From Geosiphon pyriformis uo1 (Eukaryota; Fungi; Glomeromycota): a DNA stretch of 64,000 bases. Location: contig JAAOMT010000129.1 in the NCBI GenBank assembly GCA_016748015.1, forward strand, positions 62,001 through 126,000. Reading direction: 5' to 3'. Of this stretch, positions 32,347-64,000 are shown piece by piece; position 1 is the stretch's first letter; each line of letters opens with the position of its first letter. Both the position numbers and the translations under genes were made by a program. The notes beneath the pieces were generated by a model. The model saw only the letters and a program-made list of their open reading frames with translations, was not told the DNA's origin and searched no databases.

Positions 32347-33627
32347 TTAACTTCTATTAGAATACTTGCGACTCTCATCGTTGTATCTGAAGGGGATTCT
32401 CGTGTAATGCAGAGTCTCATATCTCCTATGATAATCTCTGTAGCTTTGGGTATAATCTTCATTGACGCGTCTTTCAAATGGCTCGCACTGATATCTATCC
32501 CAATTCTTATGTTGATATTGACGGCCAGAATATCTACGCTCAGTGTGATATCTACGAACTGCAGGATTAGCCGAATGTTTATTTTGGCGGAATTCGATGG
32601 AATTTCTAGGTGATAAAACCCTAGCTGTTGCGGGATTGGAGCTTAAGTCGTGAGATTGCCTTTGAGATTCAGGAATTCTGCTTTCATTATGTAGTCGCCA
32701 GGATGCCAAATACTTCTTATAAGGATTTGATTTTATATATGAGCTAACATTACTTTCATATCGTAGGCGACCTAGATAAGGAAGAATGTCTTTCAATTCT
32801 CTATCGTGCCCCGATTCTTGAAGTATTTCTCCATATTCGGAAAGATGTATAGCATTATACGGCTGTAATTGTGCTTTAAGATCAGAATCATCGATGAGAA
32901 GAGTGTTAGTCTGATCCCAGCATCGTGGTCTTTTGTTTCTACCGTGTTCACTTTTATTCAAGCCTCCCCAGACCTTTCTCAAGTCTTTAAGGGTTAAAGA
33001 TTTCTGATTATATTCCTTCTCACTTAATCCAAAATCATCGCGCGTCCAAACGTCTATCAACTTCTTAATATATTGAGGAGAAAAAACATATTCGACCATA
33101 ATCCGGACATTTCGAGGTTGTGCTGAAGACCAGACCATTACTTCAAAATGCGCAAAGATGTAATCCAAGAATTCATGTAAGTGTGGTCTCGCGAATATTC
33201 GATTTGGATATTTTCGATAAAGCAATGTCCCATTAAGATCTAAGATAATCAATTTACGATCCGAGCTTTCCTTTTTTTCAGAAAGTTGGGAAGCGATAGC
33301 AAGATAAGATTGGGTTGGTGCCTCAGGAGGTTTTTCTGTATAGAGGGTTTTTATATCTGGTATAATTGAAGAATAAAGTTAGTTGTCAATTATCTGGGAT
33401 ACTGGATAACAAAAATGGTAGGAAAAATGAGCTAACCCTTAATCGGGTTAGTTGAGGTGCTTATCCCTCGTGAAAATTGAGGTATTGAAATATTTTCGCC
33501 TAAGAAAATATTATTTGTATTTTGAATACTCAAATGAGAATGATTGCATCGAGCCCCTACCTAATCTAGCTTGGTTGAAGAATTTTAATCCATCACGAGA
33601 TGGAGATATGTTGCGTGGTGTAGACAT
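32347..33627 (-). CDS. FCP1/NIF-homology (CTD small phosphatase-like) HAD-family protein
   Basis: Motifs LIILDLNGTL, RPHLHEFL, VMVWSSA, KDLRKVW and NTLLIDDS..KAQLQPYNAI. The main exon is 33356-32347. The 5' exon and start codon are uncertain. Confidence 0.85.
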
Positions 33628-34159
33628 CCTATCAATGAACCTTTGATCTGGCAATCCTGCGTTGATTTGTGGTGCTCCTCTCGTTTTTTCCAATATATTC
33701 GCATGTGTCACAACAGGGGCTAAGTGAGTAGAAAACCGATATTGACTATAACGCCTATCATGAGGTTCCAGCCGTTTTTGAACAGATCGAGAACGTTGCC
33801 AAGGGAAGCCTTTATATCAACACAGTCAAAATTAAGGGTTTTTGGTGAGAAAAAAACTGCTAGAATACTCGCTCTCTATTTTTCTACTTCCTGCAGATTG
33901 CAGCGCCATTAGTCGATCAAGAAACCTTCTTAAACTGTTAATTCTCGTGTTTCCCAGTTTTGATTTTAGTGCCCACTACTTGAAAGCGTTGATGGTGGTA
34001 CCAAATCAAACAATCATTAGGATTTAATAAGACTGCTAAAGTATTTTTGTTTATGAATTAGGTTTAAGTCAAAATTTCCAGATCGAAGATCAACCCAAAA
34101 AGGCAATTTAAGTGGGAGCTGATAATTTTTCCCAATGGAAATATAAAAATATGCAAATT

Positions 34160-37100
34160 TTATTCCTCTTTAGAAATATTTAGCGTAGATTTCCTTTTCC
34201 GACTTCCATCTATGGAAGCCATACTTTTTCGCCGTGTTGTTGTCTCGTAACCACCTCGGGAATTTTCACTACTTTTAAAGTCGAGAATCATTTTTTCAAC
34301 GTATTCTTTCATTTTGCCGGCCATTTTATGAACATCTGTTGACTCACGGTTATATACCAAGGCATTCATGAACATTAACATGATATCGCGTTGGAATTTA
34401 TCCGTATCATCAACTTTCTGGAAAGTGGGGATCATGAAATATAATTATTATTAATTATGCCGATTTAAAATTCTTTCCATTGGGCCAAATAGTCGACTTA
34501 CCCCTTCTCGGACATTTTTCTTGATCGTTTTCAAATCCATTGGATGCTTGACAATGTTATAATAGCCGGGAGCATCCACTTCCCGAATGGGTGTTTGAAA
34601 AAGTCCTGCAAATCGATGATTATTAAATTCCTGAAGAAGCATATTTACTAGCCGTTGCCACGTCTTGTGTCGTTTGTCTACGTAAGACGCATTTTCTTTT
34701 GAATGCGGAGATATTGTTATTTTTAATTTACGGTTGCGAAGATATTAAATAACAATATTCTGTTAAAATTTTCAAATACCAGATGCTTCTGCACTTGGAG
34801 TTTGTGCTACTTCACTGAACGAATGTGGGGAAATTGTAACTGTTTCAAAATAAATTTCAATTAACTTCAGAAAGAAAAACAAAAGATATCCATATAATTT
34901 TCCATACCATCTGCTGAGGGAGTTGAAGCAATCGCACTGACACCAGCCGGAGTTATAGGTTCTTTAAATGATGAAACAGGGCTCGACGGTTCTTTGGATT
35001 CCACGGGGCTGATTATCCCTTTGGATTCGCAGGGACTAGTTCCTGGATCTTTTAGTTCAATGGGAGTAGTGGGTTCTTTGGATTCAAAGTGATTAAATTG
35101 TTCAGTAGATTCCGAAGAAAGAATTTTTTTCTTAAACTCCATAGGATTGGCAGAATCATTTTTGATCATTAACGAGTCCTTGCGTTCGTATGGACTTTCA
35201 ATGACTATAGGTTCATCCAGTATTACTTGTTCTGTAGATACCATAGATCTTGATTCAATCCTTTCAAGTGCGAGTTCATTTGATTCAAAAGAGGGACTTT
35301 TTCTAGATTCTAAAGGAGCTATATTTAATGTATTGAGCTGAAAGGGAGTCTTAAATTCCTTAATCTCATAGGAAAGTTCAGGTCCTTGACCTGAAACAGA
35401 GTTTTCTGGAATAGTTATCAACAGCCTATCATTTTCAATGGTTTGTGAATCTAATCCTTGCTGCTGTTTTGAGGTATCGTCTACATCAACCATATTCACA
35501 TCATTGTCAGAGAATTCCTCTTTAACTAAAAGTTCTTGTTGGGATTTCTCATTAGCTAATTGAGTTACAATGGGAGGTGAGGTAGCATTGATATTTTTAT
35601 GCAACTTAAGATAAGATTTATCTTCAGCTGTTTGAAAACTTTCCTTTGGATAAATGGGTTTTTCAGTATTAGAAAAATTATTATATGTGATTGGTGAGAT
35701 TTCGCTTTCGCCAATATCCGTTCCATTTTCTTTTTTTACCATCTGTTGATCTTTCCCAACCTTCGCTGGATCTTTTTGGAAGCTCTCATTAAAAGGTGTC
35801 TGTTGTGGTTTTTCTTGGACTTCACGGATTATTAGTTCAACCTCATTCACGGTTTGGTCAATTTGCATTACATCATCTTCGCCCTCACCAGCTTCGCCTC
35901 CAATGGTCTGTGGTGTATCAAGGTCAGAGATTGTGATTGGACTGAGTAATCTTTTGACGAATTCATGTTTCAGTGGTTCCCTTTCTATAGATATTTCGTT
36001 CTGGATAGTCTGATTGTTAGAGTTTTGGGAATCTTTTATTTCCTCGCAAGTTTTAACATTATCATCGGCTTTATTCAACTCGTTGATTTGAGATACTGTA
36101 TGTGGGATAGCTTTTAACCTTTCATTTGGCCATTTCATTTTAAGGTCTGGTATTTCATCCCTTGCTCGTATTGCTGATGTGATTGATTCATTACCAATTC
36201 CTTTTAAACTGAGAGGCTCTTCTTGAAAATATTGTTTCAGAGATTCTAAAGTAAGTTTTGGCATATTTGAGGCCTGCAAGAATAGATTCTTCTCCAGCGA
36301 GAATAGATTCTCCTCCAGCGACATGTGATCTTTTTGATTCGATTCTTTGGAAATTTCAGGCTTATCCATTGGGTCAATTACAATGGTTACCACTGGCTGA
36401 ATTTTCTCTCTGTTATCCACAATAGGTTGATGCTCTGTTGGGTAGGAAGGGATTGGTGATGTGATTTCAGAATCTGTTGTTGCAGTGACTATTGATTCAG
36501 CATTTTTGTCTTTTTCAACTTCCTCTATCAATACTTCTTTGATTTTTTCAACAATATCTCGGTCTATTTCGGAAATATCAGTTGTTGGTAACACAGCCGC
36601 AGACCTTTTAACGAAATCATCAGTCTGAGATAATGCATGGGCTAAAGAAGCATCAGCTTCGGAAGCCTCTTCAATAGTTGTACAATTTTCATTAGGAGAT
36701 GTCAAGGTTACATTAATCAACGGAGTAGTAGCAAACGTGAGTTCTATGGCGTTTTGCGACGAACTGATTCCATTATTTGAGCTGGTAACTTCAATATTTG
36801 ATGTGCCAACGTCTTCTTCCTCGTCTGATGTATAAGGAACCAAAGGATAAACAGGAAGAAGTCTAGCGGAGCGATTATCAACTACTTTTGTAGGGGTAAG
36901 CATAGTTATTTCCTCTGAAATCTGAGTTTCATCATAGAGACTCTCGGAATCGTCTTTGGGTTCATTTTTAACCTTGAAAGTTTCCACATCAAGATTTCTA
37001 GATTCAGCATTTTTAGAAACTGGAAGAATATCTCGAATATTGTTGGTAAAGGTATCATCTGCAGCAATAGAAATAGATCCATCATCTAAAGTCTCTGATC

Positions 37101-38593
37101 CAGAAATTGGCATAACATTATCTGGTTCATTCTTAATGTGATCGACCACATGATCGGGAACGATGATTTCCGAGAATACTTCGATACTTGGGAATTTTGT
37201 GGACGAAGATTCTAATCCCTTTTTTTCCTCTTGATTATTGGTCAAAGGTTCAACATTCATAATAGTGTCTTTGGGCTCTGCTGAAAGTATAGGAGATAAA
37301 GATCCGGACACTTGAGATCCTTCCTCGTTGTCGATTGTCGATGTCGAAGCTTTGAGCTGAATAGTTGAATCAAAGACCGAGAATTGGGCCTCAATCCTAT
37401 TTTTATTTTCTTCGGATAACTTTTCATCCTTAAAGGGTACAGTTTTCAATGTTCCTTCCTCTTGTTCTTTAATCATTGGTAAAATGCCTACACCATTCGA
37501 AGTTCCACCTTTTTGTGATTCTTCCTCTTTCAATTGCTGATTTTCTTTTAAAATTTCCTTCAACTTATCGTCAAGTTTCCCGGATCGAATCTCGTCGATC
37601 TCAGTAACAACTACTCTAATCACAATAATAATTAATTTGATGTAAGATCAAAATCAGGAATAATCAATCTTAAAGTTTTCCATTAGACATCCTGAGAACA
37701 GAAATTACCGGAAATTTTGCTCCTCAACTTTGATCAAAGCTTTTAGCTCTTGTATCCGCTCTTGATAAAGTTGTCGTGCCAATTTAGCGGCAACAGGCAT
37801 ACGAGGAGTGTCTTTGCGAGAAAAAAAAATCATGTAATATATTGTCAATAGATGTATGAATATGGGATGAGTGATGATTAAAGATTGCGATAAGAAGGGT
37901 CGAAAGACAAATAAAACGAATGTCCCAACCGTTCAGATCTCTGTCACTGCAAATGCCGTATTTCAATAAAGAATGATTAAAATAAAGGAAATCTGGCTTT
38001 GCATTTTGCACTCTAAATATTGAATCAATATCACATCCTTGCTTGTGGCTAGTATATAGGTATCAATAAGAACCATCATCTTAGAGATTAATGGGGTTAT
38101 TGCGCTCACGGCCTCTTACCCGTACACGAAAATGTCAATTTCTCATTCTTTCCTGTTATCCACCAAACAAGAAAATTCCTTGTTTTCTATACTAGCACAA
38201 GACAAGGACGAGATAGTGAAACCCAATTGTCAAAGGTGAAGGTGACATACTTTTCCGCTTCAGCCTCAAGTTCCAGTGGTTCAATCAAGAGTCTGTACTT
38301 ATTGGAACAAGTCTGTGAGATCAATAATGATTTTTGATGAGTTTTCATCATTGAATGTGGCTTTCAGACTAAAAGACTTTTGGGTAGTGAAGGGAACTAA
38401 ATAAACTTGAAGTGGTTTGTATTCAGACCTTTTGGGAAAAGAAATCAGAAGGCCGTTCAATCATTGGGTGCTGCTTCATGGTGCGAGAAACTGCAAGCCA
38501 ATTGTCGTCCCCGAACTTGTACACAGCTTGGGCTAATAATAACTTTTCGAAAGCTGTCCAGGTTTCGCTATCGACTATTGTAGATTGTACCAT
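34160..38593 (-). CDS. BRD8: BRD8-like bromodomain protein (N-terminal SANT-like region, long acidic linker, C-terminal bromodomain)
   Basis: WTAFEKLLLAQAVYKFGDDNWLAVSR and LARQLYQERIQELK at the N-terminus. Bromodomain HRFAGLFQTPI..APGYYNIVKHPMDLKTIK...FQRDIMLMFMNALVYN. Multi-exon, including the 37615-34907 exon and a 17-nt microexon. Confidence 0.85.
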
Positions 38594-41500: not shown

Positions 41501-42927
41501 TAAACAGTTAATAAACATATATGGCCTGACATTAACAGCTAGCAAACAAGTACCCAAAAAGCGAATGGCTGAGTTAAACCAAACCGGAACAGGGCCATGC
41601 AGATTCAATCACTTTCAATGCTTAAAGCACTTCCAGTCGAGGCACTCACTCTTTTTGTTTAACAGTTAATCTATGAAAGCAATTTTATAATGCATTAGCA
41701 AATGGGCCACTCTGAAGAATACACTATTACCGAGAACTTCAGAGATTGGCATTCCAACAGAGTGATGAAAAGCTGTTAACAGAGTAGAAAAGAACAGTCC
41801 ACAGAATGAAAAAATTTTTACCATCCTGGCTAAAAAATTATTCTTAGAATTGATCTGCAACCTGATAAGATGGCACAATAGATAAACAGGTGACCAGCTG
41901 GCTACTTGTAAATCCAAACTCTAATGAATAAAAAGTTGTCCCAAAATACCCGGAGCATTTACAAAATTAATGACAGATGACAATTTATCCTCAGACTGCA
42001 TCTGGGCAAATGTTTTTATGCCATAAAATGAAGAATGTGACAATGCAGTCATAGAAAAATCATAAGGGAGATGCATCTTAAATTTTAAGTCCTTCCTAAT
42101 AATAGCATCTCATCTAGAGCAAATGGCATTAGGAATAAAACTAAACTGGATCCTGTAGCTAATAATAAGTTGCAGGATAGACGACACCAGATAGCAGAAT
42201 TGTTTATCAGATATAGCTTTGTGCAAAACCACATTTGAGAAGAATTGCATATCTGAATACACTTTTAGCAAACTCAGCTTTGAAAGCTTTTCCATTGATA
42301 AAAATGGCAACAGTTTTTTCTATATTGATAGAAATATCATTGAGAGCAAAAAACTTGCTTGCAATGTCCAAAATACATTGGGTGGCAGCTTGACTACTGT
42401 CCACCCAAATTGTATCATTCATAAAAGCCCCAGCAGCAAAAAAAGATGTCATCTCTGCTTGCAATTCTACTTTGTCTGACTTAGCAACAAATCTCAAGTC
42501 AATCCTGTATCCACACAAGTGTTTCTGACTTTTGATTTTGCACAAGAAAGGATCATAAAAGATTCTCCAAAAAAGTGGAAAAAACACTTTACCTTGGTCA
42601 AGCCCATCCAACACCTTATAACTATTAGAGAAGCCAAAATCTGTTATAACCCTGTTGGTTCTGTTCAAATGGATATTTTCAAAAAATTTAATAAATCTAC
42701 TGCACATTTTAATGTATTTCAAACTAGATTTCAGATGAAACTATTCCACAGAGTTATAAGTCTTTTGCATGTCTTGCAATACCATCCAAAGTTCCCTACC
42801 CTTTTCCAAGATGTTCTCTATAATTGATCCAATAACAAATACAGATGACTGAGTTGAAGTACCTTTCAAGACTGAAAAATTGTCACCTCTGAGAACATCA
42901 AATGTATTGCAAGCCAAAGATATACAG

Positions 42928-43914
42928 TGTTACCAGACGAAATTAGAGATATCATTTAGCATAAAACTATCTCATAATTCCTATCATTAATTAGCATATA
43001 TTATCATTTCAAATTATCACTTATTATATTAGCAAAAAATGTCCGAAATTATCATTTAATTAATAACCCAAATTGTACACAACACAAATGTAACCTAATT
43101 GCAATGATTAATTATGCAATACCCCGAACTATGTAACATTCAAAAGTTCGCCAAAATTTATAGAAATTTGCTGAAATAATTGATAGTTCACTGAAATACC
43201 TAATAGTTCGCAGAAATAACTTGTAGTTCACTGAAATGTATCTTTAGTTCAGCGAAATTATAGAAAATAGCAAAGTTCAAGTTCATAGAATAGTGTTACG
43301 ACAAGTTGTATAAAAGAAGAGCTTCTCTCTTCGAGAAAATATATCTTATTTTAGATTTATCTCTTAAAAACTGTTCCTATATACACAAAAAGAAATAAAT
43401 ATCAAATAATTCGAAAAACCAAATTCTTTAATTATTGTACTTGGAAAATCCCCAAAACCCAACTAACATTTCGAAATTGATTAGTTACCAATTTCAGTAA
43501 ACTGTTAATGACTCCAGGCCTGGATAGAAAATGTTTTCCTTGATAAAATTCCTATTTTTTTTTACATTTCTTTTATATTCTTTTTTTTCTTTTATTATTA
43601 TAATCATTAGGGTAGCCTACAGACAAGATTTCTGTAGAAGAGTTGACTTTCACAGCAAAGTAACTACACATTTTTTAGTGAGCTTCCAGACGAGCAATTT
43701 CTGAGAAAGAGTTGACGTTTACTACAACATAACTACATAAAGTAACTGGCAAGGAATTGGTCATTCCACTTATAAGCCCAGCAGTTCAAATTATAAGAAA
43801 TAATTTGAAGATAAATTCAGTTACTGGAGGTTCAACCACATCCAGAAAACGTGAATTCACAGCAAATAAGTATCAACAACATTACAGAAAAGAGACCAAA
43901 AACCTCCGGTAACA
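42928..43914 (+). repeat. 5' LTR (family 1)
   Basis: TGTTA...TAACA termini, TATAAAA at 43309 and AATAAA at 43394. About 95.6% identical to 51821-52807 by manual alignment. Confidence 0.96.
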
Positions 43915-43916
43915 TT

Positions 43917-43930
43917 TGGTGCTCTCCCAC
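43917..43930 (+). promoter_or_regulatory. Primer-binding site TGGTGCTCTCCCAC (non-Met tRNA; Ile/Thr-type candidate)
   Basis: TGG lies 2 nt after the LTR end. The tRNA identity cannot be confirmed without the host tRNA set. Confidence 0.75.
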
Positions 43931-43959
43931 AGAAACAACACAGCAAAAACAACTTCAAA

Positions 43960-46900
43960 GTGGCGACCACACCAGACACAACAACTCTAGAGTATTACCA
44001 ATCAATTTACACCCACTGCAAGCAAAGATTCAACATTCCAGATGGAATTGAAGTTGTCAAGAAATCAGTATACCAATACATTGAAAACCGCATCAACAAT
44101 TATCTTTTTGGAAATTACAATATCTCAGAAGTTAGAAGCAACCTTTACAATAATTTAGCACACTATTCACAGTTGGGAACTGAAGACCTTAATAGTAAAA
44201 CACTTGCCACTTACTTTCACGAACTTAATTTTAACATTATCAAATACTGTGAAGAAACATATCCAAGTGCAGTCTCAATACACTATTGATTTTGAATTGG
44301 AAACAAAAACAAGCAACAAAGGCAAAAACAAATTAAAGCAATATTCAAGAACCACCCCAAATACTCCAACACTACTGAAAACAACTGCCAAACATTTACA
44401 AACACCTGAACAGGGAACCAGTTCAAAACTTCCACTTACTATCCCATCTTTTTTAGCTTCACTTGCACAAGCACAAACACCTAATTCACCCTTGAATCGA
44501 TTTGCAAGACCAGAAGATTTTACATCACTCAGAAGTCCTACCAGACAACAAGAACCCCTTCAAACTAGTTCCAATCTCCTTGATTTTCTAGCTGAAAATC
44601 AAAGTGAACACTCTGAGACAGCAGCAAACGAAGAAAACAACTCTGAAATAACTGAAGAAGAATCAATAGACAGTGAAAACAAAGAAGGTGAAATGACAAC
44701 ATACATCACAAAAATCCCTAAATTCAATGGAGAAGATATTGAGACCAGTCCCCAAGAATGGCTCGACCAAGTTACTAAAGCTGGAGATGCAAATGGATGG
44801 AACGCTGCCAGAATATTAAGAACAATTCCCTACTTTCTCAAAGGAACAGCAGGAGAATGGTTTGAAAACCTTGCCGCCCCATTCAATGATTGGAATGCTT
44901 TCAAAGCAGCCTTTCTTGAACAGTTCACCAACAATAATACCTCCATCACTCTTCGCAATCGTTTTCGAAATATCAAACAAGAACCCTCCGAATCTGTTAT
45001 GACTTATATTGGGAAATTCAACAAACTTCTCAGACGGATTCGCCAACTCGAGACAAACAATTATTATTCTGATGCTCAAATCTTGAATCAATTTATCGCT
45101 GGTCTAAAAAATAAACTAATTAAAAAAGTTCACCCACACGCACCAGAAGATTTAAACTCTGCCATACAGCATGCAAAAAGATACGAAATGGCCATAGAAG
45201 AAGCCAATCGCACAAAACTTGTAAATTTGGCAATTGGAGAAACCAGCTCAGCAGCTGAGGAAAAAATTGACCAACTCACAAAGAAGGTCAAAAACTATTT
45301 TACCAACCAACAACAACAACAACCCCAAAGATATCAACCACCCCAAAGACAAAATCAAAATAACTTTGCACCACTTTCCAATAACCAGCCCCAGAATTGC
45401 CATTACTGTGGAATCTCTGGCCATTGGAAAAGAGATTGCAGAAAGCTGCAATGAGACCAACAAAATAGGGGTAATCAACGTTACTCTCCACCACAGCAAT
45501 CTTATTATCAATCATCACCACCAGCTTACTATCTACCAAGACCCCAATACCAGAATAACTATTATCAGCCCGCCCCACAACCAATCCAACAGCAATACCA
45601 ACAACCACCCACCCAATATTATCAAGTACCTGCTCGAAGACTGATTACACAAAATCAATTTACACCACAAAACCGATACCAAGTAAACAACAGTAGAATC
45701 AGTTCGAACAACCAATTGGTTCTCCAAAATACCACTCAAACAAGACCCAACTATTACTATACTCAACCCAGTTATTTAACAATGCTGGAAGAACAGGATT
45801 TTCACCATACTGCACTCTCGGAAAGTAGAGCTGCAGCACAACAACAACAAAACCCTTCTCATAATCACACCACTATTCCACCAGCCCGAATTGCTGAAAA
45901 TGCCAATCTTTCTGATATCTTTCTTTTTGAATTTGAAGCAAATGAATCACCATTCTTGCTTAGCAATGCAGCGGCTAATGAGCAAAAAGCCATTACTGCA
46001 ATGTACACAGAAGCTGAAGTAAAAGGAAAGCCAATTCGCTTAATCCTAGACAGTGAATCTGCTAGAAGCGTTATTACCTACCAGTCAATGCAACAGTTAA
46101 AAAGAAATGTCGACTGACCAGCTCAAACAGTAATTGTCACTGCCGATGGCATGAAAAAGACCCCAGTAGGAGAAATTGACAATTTTCCATTCACTCTTGA
46201 TGGAATCACCATTCCAGTCAAAGTTCTTGTAATGGACGCACCCCAGTACCAAGCTCTTGTCGGAAATGATTGGCTTCAAAAAGCCAATGCTAATCTGAAT
46301 TGGGAAACACAAGAGTTAACAATCTCCTACCAAGGACAACACGCCCGGGTACCTGCCATTTGTGGTACATTCAACAAACGCTCTGAAAAAGCCCCAGCTT
46401 TTGAATTTGAACCAGAGGAAGAAAAACCAATAATTGAAACATTTATGGCTCTTGGATCAACGTCCAACTGGGCCGATGAAACAGAACAAGAACATTTTAC
46501 CTCACACACTAAACCCAAAACCTCTGGATGGAATATACCTTACTCAAAACCCGAACCAAGGAAACAACGCCCCTATATTCCTCTTAAATGTAAGGACTGT
46601 CACAAGAAACTATCATCAATGAGAGCCTGTATTTTGCCTGAAGAAGAATATGAAAATCATACTTGTTATTACTGCAAGGCTTGGCACAGAGAGCGATGGG
46701 GCCATCTAATAAAAAAGAGCAGAAAATGGGACAACACCCTTTGTTTGACTTGTGGAGATATGCTACCAGAAGAATGCAATTGGATTGATGTAGCAATAAA
46801 AGGAGGCATCTGCGATCAGACCTGCCAATATGCTTTATCAATTTCAGAAAAAGTAAAAAGAGGAACACCCTTTAATGCAGCATACAATAGTGCTCTCAAC

Positions 46901-49581
46901 AAACTTTATCACTACCCTCATGATGCCGAGATGATTTTCGACTTAGCAATGGCATTAATTAATGGAGCTACCAAAGAAGATGTTCGTCAAATGAAAGAAG
47001 CAGAATACATTGAATACACCATGGAATTAGCTGGATTCGATTATGAAAATAAAGTAGAAGTCTACCACCAAATTGCAAGTCACACCTACTCGATCCAAGA
47101 AGCTCAAATTTAACAATTAGAGCAAATGAACATTAGGCTATGTGAAGAATGCATTATGCCTTACAATGAACAATAGTGTTCTGAATGCTATGCTCTTAGT
47201 ATCCCCTTGCCCAGCAAAAATGATGAAAATGAAATTGAATTCAGAAAACCTGAAGAAACGGAAGAAATTGAAACAACACCTATCTACCTTATTGAAAATC
47301 AGCCTGCCTTACAACTTAAATACTTTAACAACAATGGACAAGGAATAAAATCCGAAAAAACACACGAAATGGATGCTGAATATGACCTAAGATATTCAGG
47401 CAAGGATACTCTTGTTCTCAAACCCAAATCTCTCACAAAAATTAACCTCAAAATTGCACTCGAAATCCCGCCAGGAGCAATGGTTCAAATCGCCTTCTGG
47501 TCCTTTCTGGCAAGCAAGAAAATTAATGTCAGAGAAAGAATAATCGATGCTGGATATACTGAAGACATAACAGTGATGCTTCAAAATGAAACTGACAAAC
47601 CATTCAAGATTAAACATGCTGAAAAAATTGCCCAAGCTATTTACCTACCCTTAATTAACATTTCGGGTTTGCAACTAGTCAATCAAAGAGAACAATTAGG
47701 AAAAAGCGATAAAGGAACCCAAAGTTTTGGTTCAACTAGATGATTCACAGTTCCAGTTAATATAGCTCTTAACACACAGAATGAATCCCACCAGATTCTC
47801 AGACTTCTACAACCGATTACTATCTCACCCTTTGGAAAACATCTAGAAATCTACACCTGCCCAAAGTCAACAACCACACAACAAATTTTTGAGTTCAATG
47901 AACAAGTCTGCTTGGAACATAATATTTCGATCCCAAACATTTATATTCCAGAAGGAACAAAGAAAGTCTGAGTTACTTTTTACAATCCCAATAATTACCC
48001 CATAATTTTATTAAATAATTTAGAAATTGGAGTTATTCACAGTAATATATTTCAACAAGAATTACCCCAAATAGTTCCCGATTTCTCTGAAATTATTGGA
48101 CATTTAATACCAAAAATCAACCCAAACTCTAGCTCTGAAAACTACCATGTTGTCATGGAAAAACTATCTCGAATCAACATAGGACAACTTGAACCACAAC
48201 AACAGACCCAGCTCAAAGAGCTAATTGCAGAATTTGCTGACATCTTTGCCAAAAACAACAATGACTTAGGAAGAACTAATTTGGTTCAACACCAAATCTA
48301 TACAGAAGATGCCAAACCAAGGCGACAACAAGCCTACTGAGTTGCCCCAGAAAGTCACCAATTTATCCGAGAAGAAGTACAATGAATGCTTAACAATAGG
48401 CTTATTCAACCATCAATGAGCCCATGGGCTTTATCTGTGGTCCTAGTTAAAAAAAAAATGGAAAAATACGATTTTGTGTTGATTACCGACAACTCAACAG
48501 TGTTACCATTAGGGATGCCTACCCTCTTCCCCAAATTGATGACATGTTGGATGCCCTTGGAAAGTCCAAATACTTTTCAACATTAGATTTAGAGAGTGGA
48601 TACTGACAAGTTGCTATAAATCCCAAAGACCACCCCAAAACAGCATTCACCATTCAAGGAGGAAATTCCGAGTTCAATGTAATGCCTTTCGGATTATGCA
48701 ATGCACCAGCAACATTCCAAAGACTCATGGATGTTGTTTACAAAGGCCTTCTTTGGAAATCAGTAGTAGTTTATCTTGATGACACTGATGTTTATTCACC
48801 ATCTTTCGAGCTACATTTAATTCACCTGTGAGAAGTTTTTCAATGATTACAGAAAGCAGAATTGAAATTGAACATTGAAAAATGCTACTTCAGAAAAACA
48901 AGTTTAGCTTTTCTTGGTCACATTGTTAGCAAAAATGGAATTAAACCAGACCCTGGAAAAATCAGTACTGTCAAAAACTTCAAGACTCCACAAAATATCA
49001 CAGAATTAAAAGGATTTATTGGATTAGCATCCTATTACCAAAAATTCATCAAAGAATTCTCAGAAATTGCAAAACCCCTCAACCAGCTCACTACTAAAAA
49101 TGTCGAATACAAATGGACAGAAGAACACCAAAATGCCTTCAAAATACTTAAGGAAAAACTTACAACAGCTCCAATCCTCGCCTACCTAGACTTCAATAAC
49201 CAATTCCAGTTAGCAACTGACACCTCTTATACTGCCTTTGGTGCCATCCTATCACAGTTAGATGACAATGGAAATAAGCGAGTAATTGCTTATGCTAATA
49301 GAACATTAAAGCCAGCCAAAAAGAACTACCCCACAACAGAATTAGAAACTGCAGCAGTAATCTGGGCCCTACATCACTTCAACCTTTACCTCAGACCCAA
49401 AGAATTTGATATTATCATTGATAATATTGGACTTAAATGGCTTCAAAACAAAAACACCCAGCTGAACGCAAAACAAACCCAATGGACAGGATTTTTAGCT
49501 AATTACCGATACATCATATACCACAAACCAGGAAAACTCCACACCAACATTGATTGTCTTTCAAGAATAAGACAAGATTAG
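43960..49581 (+). pseudogene. Gypsy gag-pol: N-terminal extension, capsid-like Gag, CCHC, Q/P/Y-rich tract, aspartic protease, Cys-rich domain, dUTPase, RT, RNase H
   Basis: IPKFNGE..PQEWL and IKQEPSESV..Y (first ATG at 44693), CHYCGISGHWKRDC, LILDSES (decayed DSG) and LVGNDWL. RT motifs FCVDYRQLN, VMPFGLCNAPATFQ and YLDD. RNase H motifs LATDTS and YPTTELE. One frame apart from indels near 44265 and 48455. Confidence 0.92.
47315..47740 (+). pseudogene. dut: dUTPase domain within Gypsy Pol, between protease and RT
   Basis: All five trimeric dUTPase motifs are recognisable though decayed: DAEYDL, (R)SFLA, IDAGYTEDI, KIAQAI and KGTQSFGST. Confidence 0.9.
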
Positions 49582-49630
49582 AAAACAAAACCAACACCCA
49601 TTTGAATTAACAGCATCAAAACAACAAACA

Positions 49631-51016
49631 ATGAACCCCGAAAACTACAACAATCTCAAACAATATTTGGAGACATTAACAATCCCAACAGATTAGTCCC
49701 CAGATGAAAAATATCAGTTACAACAACAAGCCAAACAATATTTTCTACACAACAACATTATCTATTATCGAAATTTCAAAAACCCAACCAAACCACTCAG
49801 ATTAATACAAGAACAGGAAAAAGAGACCATTTTATACAATATGCACTCAGATCCTTCATCAGCACACTTCGGAAAAGATAACACCACTCAAAGAACACTA
49901 GAATACTATTTTTGGCCTTGAATGAGAAAAGACATTCACAAATATGTCGAATCTTGTGATAGTTGTCAAAAAAGAGGAGAAACTTGCCCTACAGAACCTT
50001 TAAATCCAATCAAAGTTGGACAGCCTTTTGACAGAGTTAGTATCGATTTAGTTGGACCACTATCTATTACCACTCAAGGAAACCATTATATTGCAGTAGC
50101 TGTAGACTATCTTACTAAATGGCCTGAAGCCAGAGCCATTCAACGAGCAGATGCAAAATCAGTAGCAAATTTCATCTATGAAGACATCATTTGTAGACAT
50201 AGATGTCTAATTGAACTTTTATCCGATCAGGGAACACACTTTGTGAACAACCTGATACAAGAAATTTGTGAATGATTCAGTGTCAAAAGACCTCTGTTTT
50301 TGCCCTACCATCCACAAACAAATGGACTTATGGAATGTTTTAACAGAACATTGTGTGAATCATTAGCCAAAGTCTCAACCAATTTTGAGCAAGAATGGGA
50401 TCTCTTTATTCCATCAGTGTTACTAGCATATAGGACATTAAAACAAGATACCACGAAACACACACCATTTGATTTAACTTATGGAAGGATGGCAACATTA
50501 CCAATTAGTTTCACAGTAGAAACATACCCAGCACAACTGATTGATGAAAACAATTTACAAGAAACGCTTCAGCGAAGAGCCTACACTCTGCTTAGCACAT
50601 TGGAAGGAAAACGACGAATAGTAGCCACCCATATTAAACACTCCCAAGCTCAACAAAAAAAATGGCATGATGACAAATTGCCTTCAGTCACCAATAAATT
50701 CAAAATTGGAAACAAAGTTCTCTTACACAGAACTAAAGCTGAAAAACAATGAAGTGGAAAATTTGAAAATAAATGGGATGGACCATTCTTTATCTATGAA
50801 GTTTTAGGCAATGGATCATACAAGCTAAGACTTGATGACAAAATCCTAGCAAAAGTTGCACATAGAGATTGTTTGAAACACTATTATTCCAGAAACAATC
50901 CTGAATCATTAATTCCACAAATTGGTACACATTCCCCTTTGATCAGTCTTGAAGATATTCCCCGAAACGTAGAACCAATAGTTGTCATTGAACAACCTTC
51001 TAATCTGAACACTTAA
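49631..51016 (+). pseudogene. Gypsy integrase (HHCC, DDE core, GPF module, no chromodomain)
   Basis: H..AHFG...CDSC, SIDLVGP, SDQGTHF, PYHPQTNGLME and WDGPF. It has its own ATG at 49631. Confidence 0.92.
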
Positions 51017-51132
51017 TTTAATTTTACTAGTTATTCTCTTATAATTTAGAACAATTTCACAAAAACAAAACAAAAATAACATAAAAATCCATACACCAAA
51101 AATAAATTTTTATTTTTTTTCAAGTGCTTATA

Positions 51133-51852
51133 ATGACTATTCCTCAAAACATTTAACAATTATCCCAAAAACTAATGTTAGCTTTAAAAACAATACCCGA
51201 ATTATCCATTACTGTTATTGGAAACCACATAAATTATACCCAAACAGAAGTAGTTACAAATTTAGCCCCAAATTCATGAAAATATCATCCATATAAAAAG
51301 AACACAAGAAGTTATACTGGAATTTACCTGCTAGAACTGTTAAAGCTTGCTTTAAGAGAAAACCTAATGCTCACTCCGATTAGTATCCCACCAAATGCTA
51401 CAATTCAACAAAAACTTCAACTGTGTTTCAATGAAGAAAACACTGAATATTCTCCAATCTATAGATATTTTCACATTGGAAAAACACTCTACAAATGGAA
51501 ACTGGAACTTACAACAGCAAACCTCACAAAAGAAGCTATTCAGAAACAACTTCACAACGAATTCAAGACAACAGCTGGATCAACAAACAGTCGCTATAGG
51601 CTTAGAGCTGCTCTTAGACTTTATAACCTATTCCACACCTGTGAAAACATACTACAAAACCCAATTTTTCAACCTTTGAAGATTTAATACATTGGAAAGC
51701 TCACAGAACTGAAATTTCAACAATTTTCAAACCAAATTTCTTCAATAATTTTGGATTATTATCTGAAAATAATAGACAGTACTTGGACTTCGACAGAGCT
51801 CAGTCTTGAGGAGGAGGTTATGTTACCAGACAAAATTAGAGATATCATTTAG
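51133..51852 (+). pseudogene. Gypsy ORF3, ~240 codons, unknown function, in env position
   Basis: A single frame runs from ATG 51133 through the PPT to TAG 51850-51852 inside the 3' LTR. It is broken by three stops (TAA/TGA/TAA) consistent with C>T or G>A decay. Confidence 0.75.
51808..51817 (+). promoter_or_regulatory. Polypurine tract GAGGAGGAGG
   Basis: Lies 3 nt upstream of the 3' LTR TGTTA at 51821. Confidence 0.85.
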
Positions 51853-52807
51853 CATAAAACTATCTTATAATTCCTATCATTAATTAGCATATATTATCAT
51901 TTCAAATTATCACTTATTATATTAGCAAAAAATGTCCGAAATTATCATTTAATTAATAACCCAAATTGTATACAACACAAATGTAATCTAATTGTGATGA
52001 TCAATCATGCAATACCCCAAACTATGTAACATTCAAAAGTTCGCCAAAATTTATAGAAATTCACCGAAATAATTGATAGTTCACCAAAATACCTAATAGT
52101 TTGCAGAAATAACTTGTAGTTTGCCGAAATGTATCTTTAGTTCAGCAAAATTATAGAAAATAGCAAAGTTCAAGTTCATAGAATAGTGTTACGACAAGTT
52201 GTATAAAAGAAGAACTTCTCTTTTCGAGAAAATGTATCTTACTTTAGATTTATCTCTTAAAAACTGTTTCTATATACACAAAAAGAAATAAATATCAAAT
52301 AATTCGAAAAACCAAATTCTTTAATTATTGTACTTGGAAAATCCCCAAAACCCAACTAACATTTCGAAATTGATTAGCTACCAATTTCAGTAAACTGTTA
52401 GTGACTCCAGGCTTGAATAGAAAACGTTTTCCTTGATAAAATTCCTATTTTTTTTTACATTTCTTTTATATTCTTTTTTTTCTTTTATTATTATAATTAT
52501 TAGGGTAGCCTACAGACGAGATTCCTGTAGAAGAGTTGACTTTCACAGCAAAGTAACTACACATTTTTTAGTGAGCTTCCAGATGAGCAATTTCTGGGAA
52601 AGAGTTGACATTTACTACAACGTAACTACATAAAGTAACTGGCAAGGAATTGGCCATTTCACTTATAAGCCCAGCAGTTCAAATTATAGGAGATAATTTG
52701 AAGATAAATTCAGTTACTAGAAGTTCAACCACATCCAGAAAACGTGAATTCACAGCAAATAAGTATCAACAACATTACAGAAAAGAGACCAAAAACCTCC
52801 AGTAACA
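51821..52807 (+). repeat. 3' LTR (family 1)
   Basis: 987-bp direct repeat of 42928-43914. Confidence 0.96.
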
Positions 52808-55800
52808 ACAGTTAGGCAAAATTTTTGACAAAATTTTACAAGCAGTTTCTATTAAAGCAATTGACTGCGTATTAGTGAGACATTCTTTCCATTCATATGG
52901 TTTAGAAATCATAGAGATTCAGGCACATTTCTACAAAGCCAGAACATCTCTATGCATAAGACAAGAATTCAGTAAGTTCAGAAGACAACTCAACACCAAA
53001 TTATCACAATGTTTCCAAAGTTCATTTGAGACATCTGAAAGGCCAGCAGCTTTGCCATCTGGCAAATTCTTTACAACTGCACATAAATCACCCAACCAGA
53101 TTTCATTTATCACACCAGAAAAAGCATTGTCAACTATATAGTCCAAAGAGGCATACTGACAGGACCACAGATCAGACACAGAATCAAGTACTTTGTGTTT
53201 CTTAGTTCAATCAACCATAATATTATCAACTTTGGCCTTTACTTCAGCCAGTTTCAGAATTAATTCCCCATTTAATACCAAGTGATCAAGAACAATCTTG
53301 TGAAAGGGGTGCTTTAGAATACTACTGATCATATTACTCTTTTCTAAAACAAAGTCATTCATACATTTACCAATTGCTCTGTTAATAGAAGCACTCTTAG
53401 CCAGCTCAGATTCAATATACTTAGTCTTATAGTAATGTTTTTTAACAACTGACAATTGTTTGAAAACCTCTACAGAATTGCTATATGTATCGAGCAAACC
53501 AGAAATTTTGGAGAATTTTACATCATCTAAAACTGACCAAATTTTAACAAAACGGACAAATTTCAAAGAATTACCCACATTCAGAGTCTTAACTATCTTA
53601 ACAATTAACAATTCAAGTCTGTAAAACCTAGACAAATGTTTGTTCCTGGAACAGTCAAAAGTACTGTATCAATGTTTAGAAAAAATAAAGTCTGCTGACT
53701 TTGTTAACATCTTTTCCAAAAGTTCTCACATAGCATTCAAGTCACCAAAATCCTTAGCAGCAGCAAAGTCATCTCTCAAAAACAACATACCAGCAGTGGC
53801 ATGATCATCAAAACATTTCCATTTAGCAGCATCTGAGTCCTTAAAATCAAACTTCCAACAGTCTGTGTTTGCAAGCTTGTGCAATGTATTTAACTGCTTG
53901 TCTAAAAGACCACCCAGTCCCACTGAGATCAACACAGCCAAGTGATCAGTATCAAAATGATCAAAAACTCCACCAATACATCCATCAAACACAGCTGATG
54001 AGAGATGATTACTCACAAAAATGAAATCAATAGTCTTTTTCACTCCTCTGAAATTGTACCACATAGAAGACTTGGATATGGAACCTGCTAAAAGTACATT
54101 GTGTAAACCCAAATCTGAGCATTTTTTGAAACTTATACTATGCCCAGCCCCATTCTTATTAAAATCACCACTGAGAAGAATGTAAGAGCTAGAGCTAATT
54201 GTCAATGCAATAAGAGCATTGACAGCAGAAGCCTGCTTGAATCTTACACCAGCTGAAGCACCAGCATACAGACCCAAAATCATAACAAAAGCCTTGCTGG
54301 CAAAAAGAAAACGAACAAAAATAAGGCATCCAGGGACTTCTGAAATTTTACACATATGATAAGCAAGATCATCATTCAAAATGATTGCAATCTCTGCTCC
54401 ACAATGTTCAGAATCCATCCCAAAACTAAAAACTTTTAAACCAGAAAACCTATTTTTAATCCATGGCCCAGTGCAACCTTTGAGCTTAGTCTCAATAAAA
54501 ATAGAAACTGAATTGCAAAAATCTTTATGCCATCTAATAGTATCTTCCTGTTTAGCTAAATTGTTCAAACTCTTAACATTATACGTGGCAAATTTCCAGA
54601 CCAAATCACTCATTAAAAGTTTATAGGAGCTGGCAAACCCAAACCAGAACACAATTGATCCAACTTTACCAAAACTGACTCAACTAACACTTTCAAAGCC
54701 ACCAACTTAGATTCCAATTCACCCACCTTGGTGGTTAAAATCTTTGAGCTACTTGAGCTAAGATTAGCAACTGTGTCTGCAACAACTAAAGGAGAAAGAA
54801 TGGAAGACACCAGTATACCATTTAGAGCCATATCTGAATCCACAACAGAGTCCAAAAATGCCGGAACAACCAGAAGTGAGACAAATGACTTGGATGCCAA
54901 AGGCACTAATTCCACAAAACTCAGCTTCTTCATAATGTCAAACACCTGATCTGCCAAAAGCTCCAAAGACCTTTTCAAGACCACTAAACAATTACTTAAG
55001 CCAGAGAAGACTGTAGACACAAGAGGAAAGATACCACCAAGACTTGAGAGTCCATGAAGAAAAAGACTAGAACCAGACCCAAAGTAAGTACTGTCAGAAG
55101 ACTTAGAGAGTGAGACCACTTGGGTCCAAAATTTGCTACCAAAAGCAGCAGGGTGAGATATCAGAACACATTTTTTTTCATACAATTTAGCAAGCTGAAA
55201 ATGAAGTTCCTCTGAAGCACTCTTTTTGTATGATCCCTTAGATGATGACAGCATGATTGCATCTGGTGTATTACATTTAAGAGCCAAATGTCCAAAATGC
55301 CCACACTTTTCACAATGAACCAAATCCATTCTAGCCCAAGAGAGTCTTATTTCATTAAAGATAGGCTCCATGTAAAAGGCAGATTCTAGATTATTATCAG
55401 AGACAAAACCGACTACTGCACAGTAAATCCTATTACCAGTTTTCATGGATCTAATTATGATGCATGTTTTCCCACCAGCACTTTTCAAAAGATTGCCCAA
55501 ATCATGAACAGTTGTTCCTACAGATAAAGTAAACAGAAGTGCTCTGAACCAATCCCTAAATGCCCAAGTCTCACAATCTCTTACTGCTTTGGCTACACAC
55601 ACAGAATCTTTACCAATCAGAAATGACCACTTTGAAGCCAATGAATCAGCTTGGTTCAATTCAGCAAACTCCACCATAGTCTTTTGTCACATTCCAATTA
55701 ATTGAATTTTGATCGACTTAATTTCCCCAAATTCGGATACTGTGGTGACAATCATATTTTTAAATGTATTTATGGGAATTTTCTTGATTATCACAGCCTG

Positions 55801-56639
55801 ATCTGACCTCATTTCTTGTCTCTTAAGATCACTATTTACATTGATCTCTTTTTCTCTGGCCAATGATATAGCCATATTCATGCTTTTTTTGGAAGTGAAG
55901 GTAGATCAAATGATCCCTTCAAATTTTGAGAGAGTAATGGCCCCCCCAAAACCATTGATTGATAAAAAAAATTTTCTAATTAACTGAGTTTTTGCTGTTG
56001 CTGATTTCCCTTCTATAGCACTAAGATTGATATCAAGAGCAAAAAATTTTTTGGCAGACACCTCAACTTGAGTCTTAATAATTTTTGGATCAATCCATTT
56101 CTTTTCCAAAAAGATTGAAAGGCAAAGAAAAAGAAAGACATCTTCATCATTATCCATGACAAAATTAGGAAATCCAAGAGATGAACTGAAAATAGTATCA
56201 GTATTAATATGCTTGGCTTTAAGAGTGTTGGCAGCTGAATCCAGAAGAGACCCAACATTAATGCCAGTCATGTTAGCACTTTTCTTGTCACCAAACACAT
56301 TATCCACATCAGAGAACATATTGTTACCAAGTTCAGACTTGCTTAGAGAGATATTTTTTTTGTCATCTGAGTGTTTGACATTCTCAAGCACAACTTTCTT
56401 CTTCTGCAAGAAGGAACCACCAGCAGGACCATGAAAAGCACCCTTTGGTGCCTTCTTTTTAGACATGTTGCTACTAGAAGCAGTCTTCAAGTCCACGAAA
56501 AAAGGATTATTAGAAAGAGAAATTGTGAAATACTAACAAGAAAAAATAAAAAAAACTTTTTTTTCAGAAAAACACTTTTTGAGAATTTATGAATGTAAGG
56601 GAGAAAGAAGTTTTTTTCTGTTATAGAAACTACTAAATA

Positions 56640-61400: not shown

Positions 61401-64000
61401 ACCAATTGTAAAAATGGGAGACTGAGTAGTCGTACCCTTCAAAACCAAAAAATTGTCCTTACAAAGAACATTGAAAGTACTGCATGCAGCAGAAATCCTA
61501 TTAGAAAGAACCTTGGAAAGAATCTTGTGGGCTGTCTTGATCAAAGCAATAGGATGTGTGTTTGTCAGAACACCTTCCTACTCATAAGACTTGGGAATTA
61601 TCGAAACCCAGGCCTCTCTCCATGGGCCGGTGTTACTGGAGGTTTTTTTGGTCTCTTTTCTTAAATGTTGTTGATGCTTGTTTGCTGTGAATTCACGTTT
61701 TCTGGATGTGGTTGAACCTCCAGTAACTGAATTTATCTTCAAATTATCTCCTATAATTTGAACTGCTGGGCTTATAAGTGGAATGGCCAATTCCGTGCCA
61801 GTTATTTTATGTAGTTACGTTGTAGTAAACGTCAACTCTTTCCCAGGAATTGCTCGTCTGGAAGCTCACTAAAAAATGTGTAGTTACTTTGCTGTGAAAG
61901 TCAACTCTTCTACAGGAATCTCGTCTGTAGGCTACCCNNNNNNNNNNNNNNNNNNNNNNNNNNNNNNNNNNNNNNNNNNNNNNNNNNNNNNNNNNNNNNN
62001 CATTTCGGCGAACTACAAGTTATTTCGCTGAACTATGAATTATTTCGGCCAATTTCCATTAATTTCGGCGAATTTTTGCTATGTTATATGGTTCAGGGTA
62101 TTGTGTAAATTGATCATCTCAATTTCTATGGTCCAAATCGGGTTATTGATTAAATGATGATAATTGCTAATTTGATTAAATAATAAGTGAAATTCGAAAC
62201 GATAATAATATGTGCTAATTAATGATAGGAATTATAAGGGAAATTTCATGCTAATTAATAGCTAAAATTCTACTGGTAACACCGGGCACTGATTCACCAG
62301 CCAAGCAAGTGTTCAAAAGCACCAACAACATCTCCAAGACAGACCTATCACAATGTTTCCAAAGCTCATTTGAGATACCCAACAGACCAGCAGCTTTGCC
62401 ATCAGGAAGGATGGAAACCATCCCAAACAACTTGTCAAAACCAATCGGACACATCACCTTTGAAAAAGCCTCATCAAAAACATACTCCAAAGGCTGATAT
62501 TGGCGACACCATTTACTTGACATATTATCGACCACCCGACGCTTCCTAGTTCAACCCTTCATGATCACGTCCACCTTGCTCATAACCTGATCAGGCTCCA
62601 AAACCAGTTCACTATCAACAACCAAGTGATCAAGCACCACCTTACAAAATGGGTGCTCCAGCACACTCCTTATCGTATAATCTTTATTGACCTCAAAGCT
62701 TTCCATTCTCTTATCTATGGCTGATCTAATGTTAGCCTTCTTGGCGTTCTGAGACTCAATGAGCTTAAATGCACAATATGATTTTCGAGTGCTTGAGAGA
62801 GCAAAAAGGACATGACCAGAGTCCATACCAAAATCCATCAGATCCCAAATGATTAAAGCCTTAATACTGTCCAGAGAAGTCCAACAATCCATGAAAGAAG
62901 CAAAACCAACAACATCTTCCTTACGCGATGTCTTGATGATCTTAAAAACCAAAAGCTCCAATTTGTAAAACTTTGAGGATTCCTTAGAGAAAACTCTATC
63001 AAAGTTCTTGAATCATTTTTTTTTGAAAGTACTATTAGCTAAAAGCACTATGACCTCGCAAATGACGTCCCACATCACATCCAAATCTGAGAATCTTACA
63101 GAGGTGGCAAACTTATCTGAGAACATTGCTGCATTGGCCAAAGTGGCACACCTGAAATTGTCCCATTTACTCTCATCAATGCCCCTAATGTTAAACTTCC
63201 ATTGATCTCTATTCGCCTGCCTACGAAAAAAGTTCGAATGCATATCCAAAAGTCCACCCAAACCCACAGACACACAAACTGTTTGATGATCAGTATCAAA
63301 ATACTCACTAACATCCAAAACATCTTGGCTTACTATCGCATTGACCAAATTTGACGAAATGAACACATAATCAATAGTTCTTACAACACCCCTTGAATTT
63401 CTCCAGGTAGGACTTTTTGCCAATGAATTCCCTGCCAGAGAATTGACCATTCCCAAATCCAAACACTTCTTAAAACTAGCACACCTGCGAGAGCCATCTT
63501 CATTGAAATCACCACCCAAAATGACAAAAGAAGACTCATTCACAGCCCTAGCTATCAAGGAATTGACTTCACTAGCTTGAGAGAAACGGACTGCCAGAGA
63601 AGCACCAGCATAAAGCCCCAAAATTGATACCAAAAGTTTGTTCTTAAAAAGCAACTTAATTGAAAGAAGCCAACCAGGCACCTTAGAAACCTTATACACA
63701 TGGCGAGCCAGAGAATTGTCTACAACAATAGCAACACCCGAACTCAGATTACCAGAATCTTGACCTGAAGTAAAGACTCAAACACCATCAAACCTAGTTG
63801 CAATCCATGGACAGACCTTACTCTTTAGCTTGGTCTTAGTAACAATAGAAATCAAATTGTTCATATTCTTGTGCCAACAAATGACATCTTCCTGTTTTGC
63901 AGGATTGTTCATACCTCTAACATTACACGTGGCAATTTTCCAAATTAAGTGAGTCATTGAGAAGACAGGGGAACTGACAAACCCAAACCAGAGCACAGAA
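58497..64000 (-). mobile_element. LINE copy F (ORF2 63957-58635 and 3'UTR; ORF1 lies off the right edge), interrupted in RT by an LTR; least decayed copy
   Basis: MTHLIWKIATCNVRG, GGDFN, TDH, GLDQGEVFS, AFVDDT, YTNGS and CLYC..DHVFFC. Poly-T at 58497-58511. Confidence 0.93.
61631..62281 (-). mobile_element. Family-1 LTR (solo, or collapsed full element) spanning an assembly gap, inserted in LINE F RT
   Basis: TGTTA/TAACA termini and a perfect TSD CCGG (61627-61630 and 62282-62285). 61631-61937 is near-identical to the 3' part of the Gypsy LTR. An N-run occupies 61938-62000. Confidence 0.9.

Follow-up and report, generated by a model that had tools for sequence, protein, structure and literature searches.

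The mutation of cytosine to thymine in repeated DNA is known from several systems. In Neurospora crassa and other Pezizomycotina, repeat-induced point mutation (RIP; RID, DIM-2) leaves C:G>T:A changes on both strands with a preference for CpA, no transversions, nonsense codons in place of Trp, Gln and Arg, and AT-rich relics. In Zymoseptoria tritici, Dim2 is associated with near-pure C>T change in repeats without sex, more than 98% of it at CpA with CG spared (PMC8016269), while deamination of 5-methylcytosine (5mC) in plant long terminal repeats (LTRs) raises the transition/transversion ratio (Ts/Tv) to 2.8-5.2, reaches all C contexts, with CHG above CHH (H being A, C or T), and proceeds faster in repeats than in genes (wheat, PMC2996936; mangrove, 10.1101/263830). 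Pucciniomycotina show TpCpG hypermutation in their transposable elements (TEs) (PMC3318451), and a RIP-like process has been claimed from CpA/TpA indices for Entomophthorales, outside Dikarya (PMC10515909). Here, we describe a further case from Geosiphon pyriformis uo1 (Glomeromycota), likewise outside Dikarya and with no shown sexual cycle. In a window of 64,000 nucleotides (assembly GCA_016748015.1, contig JAAOMT010000129.1, positions 62,001 to 126,000, forward strand; window coordinates are used throughout), the two LTRs of one Ty3/Gypsy retrotransposon (42928-52807) differ by C/T and G/A transitions only.

The LTR pair, together with its matches to a third LTR, came from a comparison of the window with itself. 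Aligned over 987 bp, the two LTRs show 43 mismatches and no gaps, and all 43 are C/T or G/A, without a single transversion. Such an outcome has a probability of 2.7e-8 at a Ts/Tv of 2, of 2e-6 at 2.8 (wheat TEs) and of 5e-4 at 5.16 (mangrove LTR pairs), and the one-sided 95% lower bound on Ts/Tv is 13.9 for all changes and 7.2 for the 23 that lie outside CpG. By context, 20 changes are at CpG, 9 at CpT, 7 at CpA and 7 at CpC; the CpG events correspond to 16 dinucleotides, four of which were hit in both LTRs, on opposite strands. When the available sites are taken into account, the rate per site per LTR is 0.217 for CpG (20/46), 0.067 for CpC (7/52), 0.042 for CpT (9/106) and 0.035 for CpA (7/101), CpG changing about five times faster than CpH, with no significant heterogeneity among the non-CpG contexts (p=0.42). 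Expressed per C in the contexts used for methylation, the rates are 0.217 for CG, 0.050 for CHH (21/210) and 0.020 for CHG (2/49), CG against the rest giving p=3e-7. The changes divide into 23 C>T and 20 G>A, mixed inside each LTR, and the load is nearly equal at about 2% per LTR (20 versus 23 events). Neither strand runs (runs tests, p of 0.89 and 0.33) nor significant clustering (p of 0.21 and 0.065) were found within the LTRs, at the low power that 20 and 23 events afford.

The direction of these changes was read from the third LTR, a solo copy that serves as outgroup. Over the 307 bp (61631-61937) in which it is 95% identical to the pair, it keeps C/G at 12 of 13 variable sites; as the sole exception, LTR position 981, is a CpG, all eight non-CpG sites in the overlap polarise as C>T. 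In the part that is only 74% identical, C/G is found at 10 of 15 sites, T/A at 2, and another letter or a gap at 3. The initial annotation had put the LTR differences at about 43, all C/T or G/A without transversions or indels, with about 20 at CpG and the others at CpA, CpT or CpC, and had deduced a C:G>T:A direction from the third copy; the alignment and the recount confirm each of these figures. Two further observations concern the LTR copies. The shift of the third LTR from 95% to 74% identity across its gap of unassigned bases could reflect either a recombinant subfamily or a scaffolding join, and both target-site duplications (42924-42927/52808-52811 and 61627-61630/62282-62285) are 4 bp long; the CCGG of the solo LTR is centred on a CpG, and the ACAG of the complete element could be a decayed CpG-centred site.

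The complete element is a Ty3/Gypsy LTR retrotransposon, with TG...CA LTRs, a target-site duplication, and an interior coding for gag, dUTPase, reverse transcriptase (RT), RNase H and integrase, RT-RNase H lying ahead of integrase (Table 1). ACAG on both flanks together with the TG...CA ends indicates that the LTR pair stems from one insertion. Given this duplication, the colinear halves of the interrupted long interspersed nuclear element (LINE), and other genomic copies of that LINE in same-isolate contigs in which 42924 is joined directly to 52817, the two LTRs were identical at insertion. This bears on the reading of the pattern as an artefact or as editing, namely chimeric LTRs put together from different copies, damage to the sample DNA, or APOBEC-type editing of complementary DNA (cDNA), which we hold to be barely credible. 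The family is of very high copy number, the third LTR carries an assembly gap, and none among the contigs listed spans the element, all of which would suit a chimera; the duplications and the colinear host LINE speak against it, and a chimera should have brought in transversions and indels, as are seen between the third LTR and the pair (3 transversions and a 2-bp indel in 307 bp). The genes of the window are intact and identical to independent contigs, with 0 differences from a same-isolate DNA run across three contigs that align over 2278, 3497 and 4863 bases, and APOBEC-type editing, which would give plus-strand G>A only, is ruled out by the mixture of C>T and G>A in each LTR.

Comparison with the known systems shows a process that is RIP-like in outcome and that, in the tests of RIP membership that could be run, comes out as different from RIP. 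It shares with RIP of Pezizomycotina the features listed above apart from the CpA preference, and differs in that CpG is the main target, the load is light and even without clusters, and the family is abundant. RIP is marked by high TpA/ApT and low (CpA+TpG)/(ApC+GpT), and by the customary thresholds the values inside the element are not RIP-like: they are 0.69 and 1.45 in gag-pol, which resembles the genes (0.75 and 1.33), and 0.95-0.97 and 1.12 in the LTRs. With Dim2 of Z. tritici this locus has in common the near-pure C>T change and a DIM-2-class enzyme reported in the lineage, the order of CG and CpA being reversed. With only 7 of 43 changes at CpA, both RIP of the CpA type and Z. tritici Dim2 as such can be ruled out. 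Plant LTRs agree in the raised Ts/Tv and in the involvement of all C contexts, and differ in that Ts/Tv here is no lower than 13.9 and the slowest context is, if anything, CHG. Although the Pucciniomycotina pattern also has a CpG-containing target in fungal TEs, over half of the changes here lie outside CpG and there is no preference for a 5' T, TpCpG being changed at 9/21 sites and the other NpCpG at 4/12, 4/7 and 3/6 (11/25 together; 0.214 versus 0.167-0.286), which rules out the rust TpCpG pattern. The Entomophthorales claim is alike in lying outside Dikarya; it rests on indices that give no signal at this locus, where the pattern emerges from direct comparison of copies.

Canonical RIP in a wider sense, RID-dependent, homology-triggered and premeiotic with a relaxed target, would imply a hidden sexual cycle and strikes us as very improbable. 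The outcome is the same, C:G>T:A only, on both strands and in both copies of a linked direct repeat, RID has been reported in arbuscular mycorrhizal (AM) fungi (PMC8298701), and AT-rich wastelands of 7-11% G+C content (GC) flank the gene island of the window. Set against this are (i) the position of CpA as the slowest context and the lack of a TpCpG preference, (ii) the indices of gag-pol, (iii) the absence of clustering and of strand runs, (iv) the very high copy number of the family, as roughly indicated by depth, (v) the scoring of all five Glomeromycetes genomes looked up as no_rip (PMC12543289, S14 Table), and (vi) the unproven status of sex in the model AM fungus (PMC11414155). The initial annotation had proposed either a repeat-directed cytosine-mutating defence or strong non-CG methylation; the second fits better than RIP proper, with CpG hottest, CpA coldest, strands mixed and internal indices that are not RIP-like.

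The same direction of change extends beyond one LTR pair. When contigs of a DNA run from the same isolate, in which the window genes are identical, were aligned to 41500-54500 (68,797 pieces, taking in those down to 80% identity as well as other subfamilies), the variable places of the Gypsy family comprised 2568 transitions and 380 transversions. C>T was seen at 907 of 2711 C (33%) and G>A at 732 of 1847 G (40%), while each type of transversion reached 0.3-2.9%. The stretch has only 127 CpG, and at least 1385 of the 1639 C>T or G>A places of the family lie outside the present CpGs of the window; together with the 23 of 43 LTR changes outside CpG, this excludes decay of CpG only. Among the 40 places listed of 2988, which are not a random set, the majority of the family has a letter other than that of the window at 10; nine of these have T/A in the window and C/G in the family (8 of them non-CpG), and the tenth is a CpG with the other letter at 52%. 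The summed depth of the family, a rough sign of copy number, is about 115,000-836,000 compared with about 84 for genes.

A second family is a small multi-copy repeat inside the gene island. In its diverged copies we count 13 C>T and 5 G>A changes as well as 2 transversions, T:A>C:G being absent; 16 of the 18 C:G>T:A changes are non-CpG, with 16 in CHH, 2 in CG and 0 in CHG, the counted stretch having no CHG site. Several copies elsewhere are identical to that of the window. The repeat is non-coding, lies between CNOT1 and the next gene and is possibly similar to miniature inverted-repeat transposable elements. The idea that this genic copy is protected was dropped, since it is matched exactly by a contig of depth 634 and may simply be young. 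In this respect the initial annotation is supported, two repeat families showing C:G>T:A change that reaches far beyond CpG.

Base composition separates the gene island from the repeats that surround it. CpG counts per 500 bp are 7-27 from 20001 to 38500 and 0-11 outside, with sharp edges. For non-coding DNA, the CpG observed/expected ratio (o/e) was taken over five stretches of the island, where it is 1.15-1.29 except in one that takes in coding DNA (0.65), and over three on the repeat side, where it is 0.00-0.08; the ratio is 0.86 for genes, 0.37 for the Gypsy interior and 0.08 for the interrupted, and thus older, LINE. The loss of CpG is confined to the repeat compartment and is deeper in the older insertion. 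The term repeat-directed is therefore grounded in composition as far as CpG is concerned, and for the non-CpG changes it would apply by extension.

It is this last step that is disputed by an explanation in which the CpG part alone is specific to repeats and the non-CpG part reflects a genome-wide, C>T-dominated spectrum with few transversions. The genome is AT-rich, and GC at fourfold sites is little higher in the host genes (0.30-0.43) than in the ORFs (open reading frames) of the elements (0.26-0.31). By arithmetic, however, with C>T at 0.044 per C and no more than about 0.003 per A/T, neutral GC should be pushed to roughly 5%, while introns keep 28.5% (14 introns, 1265 bp) and intergenic DNA of the island 29-34% (three stretches), as opposed to 7-24% in non-coding DNA on the repeat side; we judge this explanation to be improbable. 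Stretches of 7-11% GC almost without CpG are found at 10001-11500, 19501-20000 and 39001-40000, and two of them bracket the gene island exactly; end-stage relics of C>T change, or boundary DNA between chromatin compartments, are possible readings.

The mutations have consequences for the reading frames. Of 57 stops with an alignable counterpart in another copy within the window, 41 stand opposite Trp (20), Gln (11) or Arg (10), the codons that are turned into stops by C>T or G>A, and at the four premature TGA codons in RT/RNase H the commonest residue of the homologues is Arg or Trp. The initial annotation had described frames that are mostly kept and stops at these three codons; the latter holds for the fraction just given, and the former has to be qualified, since pol changes frame at an A run around 48450. 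Judging from homologues, which end at 49566-49575, the stop at 49579 is probably no damage and forms the natural end of the RT-RNase H frame. The integrase frame has an ATG at 49631 after this stop, and several of the top homologues likewise end after RNase H; integrase is probably encoded by a separate gene.

As an outside comparison, 80 of 310 loci with related Gypsy elements were retained from soil metagenomes. Their LTR-like terminal pairs are too short or too young (Ts:Tv of 3:0 for L037, 1:0 for L052, 0:0 for L059 and 3:2 for L062). Close pairs of loci, picked post hoc, gave 33:3, 24:2 and 27:2, as against 70:46 for L062/L077 (p 7e-8), in coding and often third-position-rich differences; further pairs gave 83:10, 34:12 (L012/L060, same clade) and 278:63 (L005/L009), and a GC-rich pair, L075/L078, gave 112:13 within an ORF. 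As support, such between-locus pairs are weak. The best outside look-alike of the decay described here is L007:765-3129 versus L017:1-2365, with 98.9% identity, 24 transitions, 2 transversions, 3 changes at CpG and 5 stop-creating changes among 25 changed codons. In a quick tree, some metagenome elements fall into a 97% clade with a Rhizophagus protein and L016, L020 and L024 lie outside it, the window element forming a long row in no starred set; among viral contigs, 16 pattern matches included no relative. Pairs of LINEs within the window (63-69% identical) have a Ts/Tv of 1.4-1.8, mixed with divergence at the protein level, and are too old for a spectrum.

The rank CG > CHH > CHG, the even spread of changes and the age gradient of CpG loss resemble a methylation map that has been read out by deamination, and the lack of strand runs and significant clustering and the 20 versus 23 load are as a slow clock would give. 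We consider it probable, if only just, that the LTRs diverged because repeats in this fungus decay from C to T during vegetative growth in step with methylation of their CG and CHH cytosines. Such a process would comprise several steps: (i) silenced repeats would be densely methylated at cytosines in CG plus CHH contexts, the CG marks being kept by DNMT1/DNMT5-type enzymes and the CHH marks laid by a DIM-2-type enzyme; (ii) these 5-methylcytosines would turn into thymine steadily in vegetative growth, by deamination with poor repair of the T:G mismatches, a sexual cycle not being required; (iii) the background of replication errors would be low, so that transversions lag far behind; (iv) the non-CpG loss would be specific to repeats, as the CpG loss is. 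In Phycomyces, a relative, TEs are methylated at CG and CHH and not at CHG (PMC11258239), a rank order of 5mC that equals the mutation rank seen here. In Rhizophagus irregularis, liquid chromatography-mass spectrometry found 32.5-49.5% of all cytosines methylated (PMC8298701), and CG sites amount to 13.8% of cytosines, 30.8% of these CG sites being methylated at a high level, for the most part in TEs (PMC8647823); if both figures hold, non-CG 5mC should be abundant. AM fungi are said, at second hand, to hold DNMT1, DNMT2, DNMT5, DIM-2 and RID (PMC8298701), and DIM-2 methylates chiefly non-CG sites (PMC13297926).

Several points weigh against methylation-coupled decay: (i) the difference between CHH and CHG is not significant (p=0.28); (ii) the direct analysis of LTRs covers one pair only; (iii) the small gap in fourfold-site GC between genes and elements counts against repeat specificity; (iv) the metagenome elements are less one-sided, with C>T versus T>C of 19:9 and 16:7; (v) the Ts/Tv bound of 13.9 exceeds the values of plant LTRs methylated at CG, CHG and CHH (PMC2996936, 10.1101/263830); and (vi) C>T per site exceeds the total transversion rate at least about 27-fold at CpH (at least about 130-fold at CpG; both by arithmetic from the LTR counts), which could point to an active enzyme. 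The excess over plants can be explained in one of two ways: either background errors have been unusually rare for the time that has passed, or the load is raised further by an enzyme. In the latter case, a sex-independent mutator, that is a DIM-2-/RID-type enzyme or a recruited deaminase, would act mitotically and with loose context on top of CpG decay. The ratio of 43:0, far above plant values, is in its favour, as are the reports of DIM-2 and RID in AM fungi (PMC8298701) and the finding that Dim2 increases the rate of mitotic mutation in Z. tritici over tenfold, C>T making up more than 95% of the changes (PMC8016269). We nevertheless regard it as unlikely, because the Z. tritici changes concentrate at CpA and spare CG, the slowest and the fastest contexts here, and because the context rates follow what a methylation map predicts.

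Table 1. Positions of the retrotransposon, its parts and the other features of the window
Feature	Position	Strand	Remarks
5' LTR, 987 bp, TG...CA	42928..43914	+	T/A allele at 20/43 differing sites (11 C>T, 9 G>A)
3' LTR, 987 bp, TG...CA	51821..52807	+	T/A allele at 23/43 differing sites (12 C>T, 11 G>A)
Left target-site duplication, ACAG	42924..42927	+	
Right target-site duplication, ACAG	52808..52811	+	
Putative primer-binding site	43915..43930	+	From sequence only; TGG 2 bases past LTR
Polypurine tract	51808..51817	+	Assigned on sequence alone
gag (Retrotrans_gag, Ty3_capsid, zinc knuckle), continuing into protease region	44159..46354	+	In-frame TGA at 45452, 46115
dUTPase domain	47177..47743	+	Pfam PF00692, E 8e-13
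Reverse transcriptase + RNase H	48053..49581	+	Premature TGA at 48338, 48604, 48829, 48844; frame shift near 48450
Integrase region, different frame, after stop 49579	49604..51016	+	tblastn of integrase-bearing homologues; stops 49694, 49919, 50273, 50750
LINE interrupted by the element, left part	41940..42923	-	Colinear with LINE 5560-6188
LINE interrupted by the element, right part	52814..56609	-	CpG o/e 0.08
Third (solo) LTR	61631..62281	-	Flanked on both sides by CCGG; 63 N at 61938-62000; serves to polarise changes
Single-copy gene island (CNOT1, NIF-phosphatase, others), control	20001..38500		CpG o/e 0.86; spliced transcripts
Small multi-copy repeat inside gene island	29816..30267		

Some features of the locus can be added. 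The TGG past the 5' LTR marks a putative primer-binding site, and no tRNA was matched to it. The dUTPase of the Gypsy element sits between protease and RT. The runs analysed come from one sample and number three, one of DNA, one of spliced RNA and one that yielded nothing for the window. The RNA run contains only a few low-depth pieces of the Gypsy family over 45300-51900, in contigs that cannot show expression level; as these are 80-96% alike, Gypsy transcripts, if any, come from other copies. At least five divergent LINE copies (63-69% identity) are stacked on either side of the gene island, and those at 3630-9945 and 40949-41608 have an RNase H domain after RT (Pfam). Within the island, the best named matches of CNOT1 are from Cetraspora pellucida (71% identity) and Diversispora eburnea (69%), which on their own point to an AM fungus, likely of Diversisporales, and 34867-37647 on the minus strand holds a transcribed exon of 926 amino acids that is acidic, of low complexity and without a Pfam match.

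With regard to what has been reported, Gigaspora margarita and Mucoromycotina yielded no detectable RIP signatures (PMC8647823, citing Venice 2020), a kingdom-wide k-mer screen limits RIP-like signals to Ascomycota (PMC12543289), and a preprint on 1,348 genomes agrees for fungi at large (10.1101/2025.06.16.659975). In the literature searched, outside which most subscription papers fall, LTR divergence by transitions only did not turn up for AM fungi, nor did any Ts/Tv of single-nucleotide polymorphisms or non-CG methylome of an AM fungus, and the accessible portions of PMC12344493, PMC13062716, PMC10386755 and PMC11414155 contain nothing on a C>T spectrum. The initial annotation had presented the locus as a RIP-like signature outside the fungi in which RIP is established; the host does lie outside Dikarya, and a RIP-like signal from there is not without precedent, given the index-based claim for Entomophthorales.

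To conclude, the pattern is real, well above chance and present in two repeat families of a lineage scored RIP-free. One practical consequence, also foreseen in the initial annotation, is that dating by LTR divergence with the Kimura two-parameter (K2P) distance is unsafe here: the pair has a K2P of 0.046, whereas the lack of any transversion over 987 bp limits the ordinary background to about 0.009, assuming a Ts/Tv of 2 (by arithmetic), and TE ages based on LTR or Kimura distances are therefore likely inflated, at least fivefold. AM fungi have large, TE-rich genomes that are listed as defended by methylation and RNA interference, not by mutation; near-pure C>T erosion in all contexts would make silencing permanent through nonsense mutations, and index and k-mer screens tuned to CpA miss such erosion. 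As a tentative proposal, which we give a modest chance, AM fungi may run an enzyme-driven, repeat-directed C>T mutator that favours no dinucleotide other than CpG; it would be an early-diverging precursor of RIP, built on RID/DIM-2 and invisible to composition screens. The finding offers a direct test of the role of the RID and DIM-2 reported in AM fungi and of whether a RIP-like process needs sex; if such a mutator proved to be RID-dependent and premeiotic, its traces would be a genomic record of hidden sex in AM fungi.

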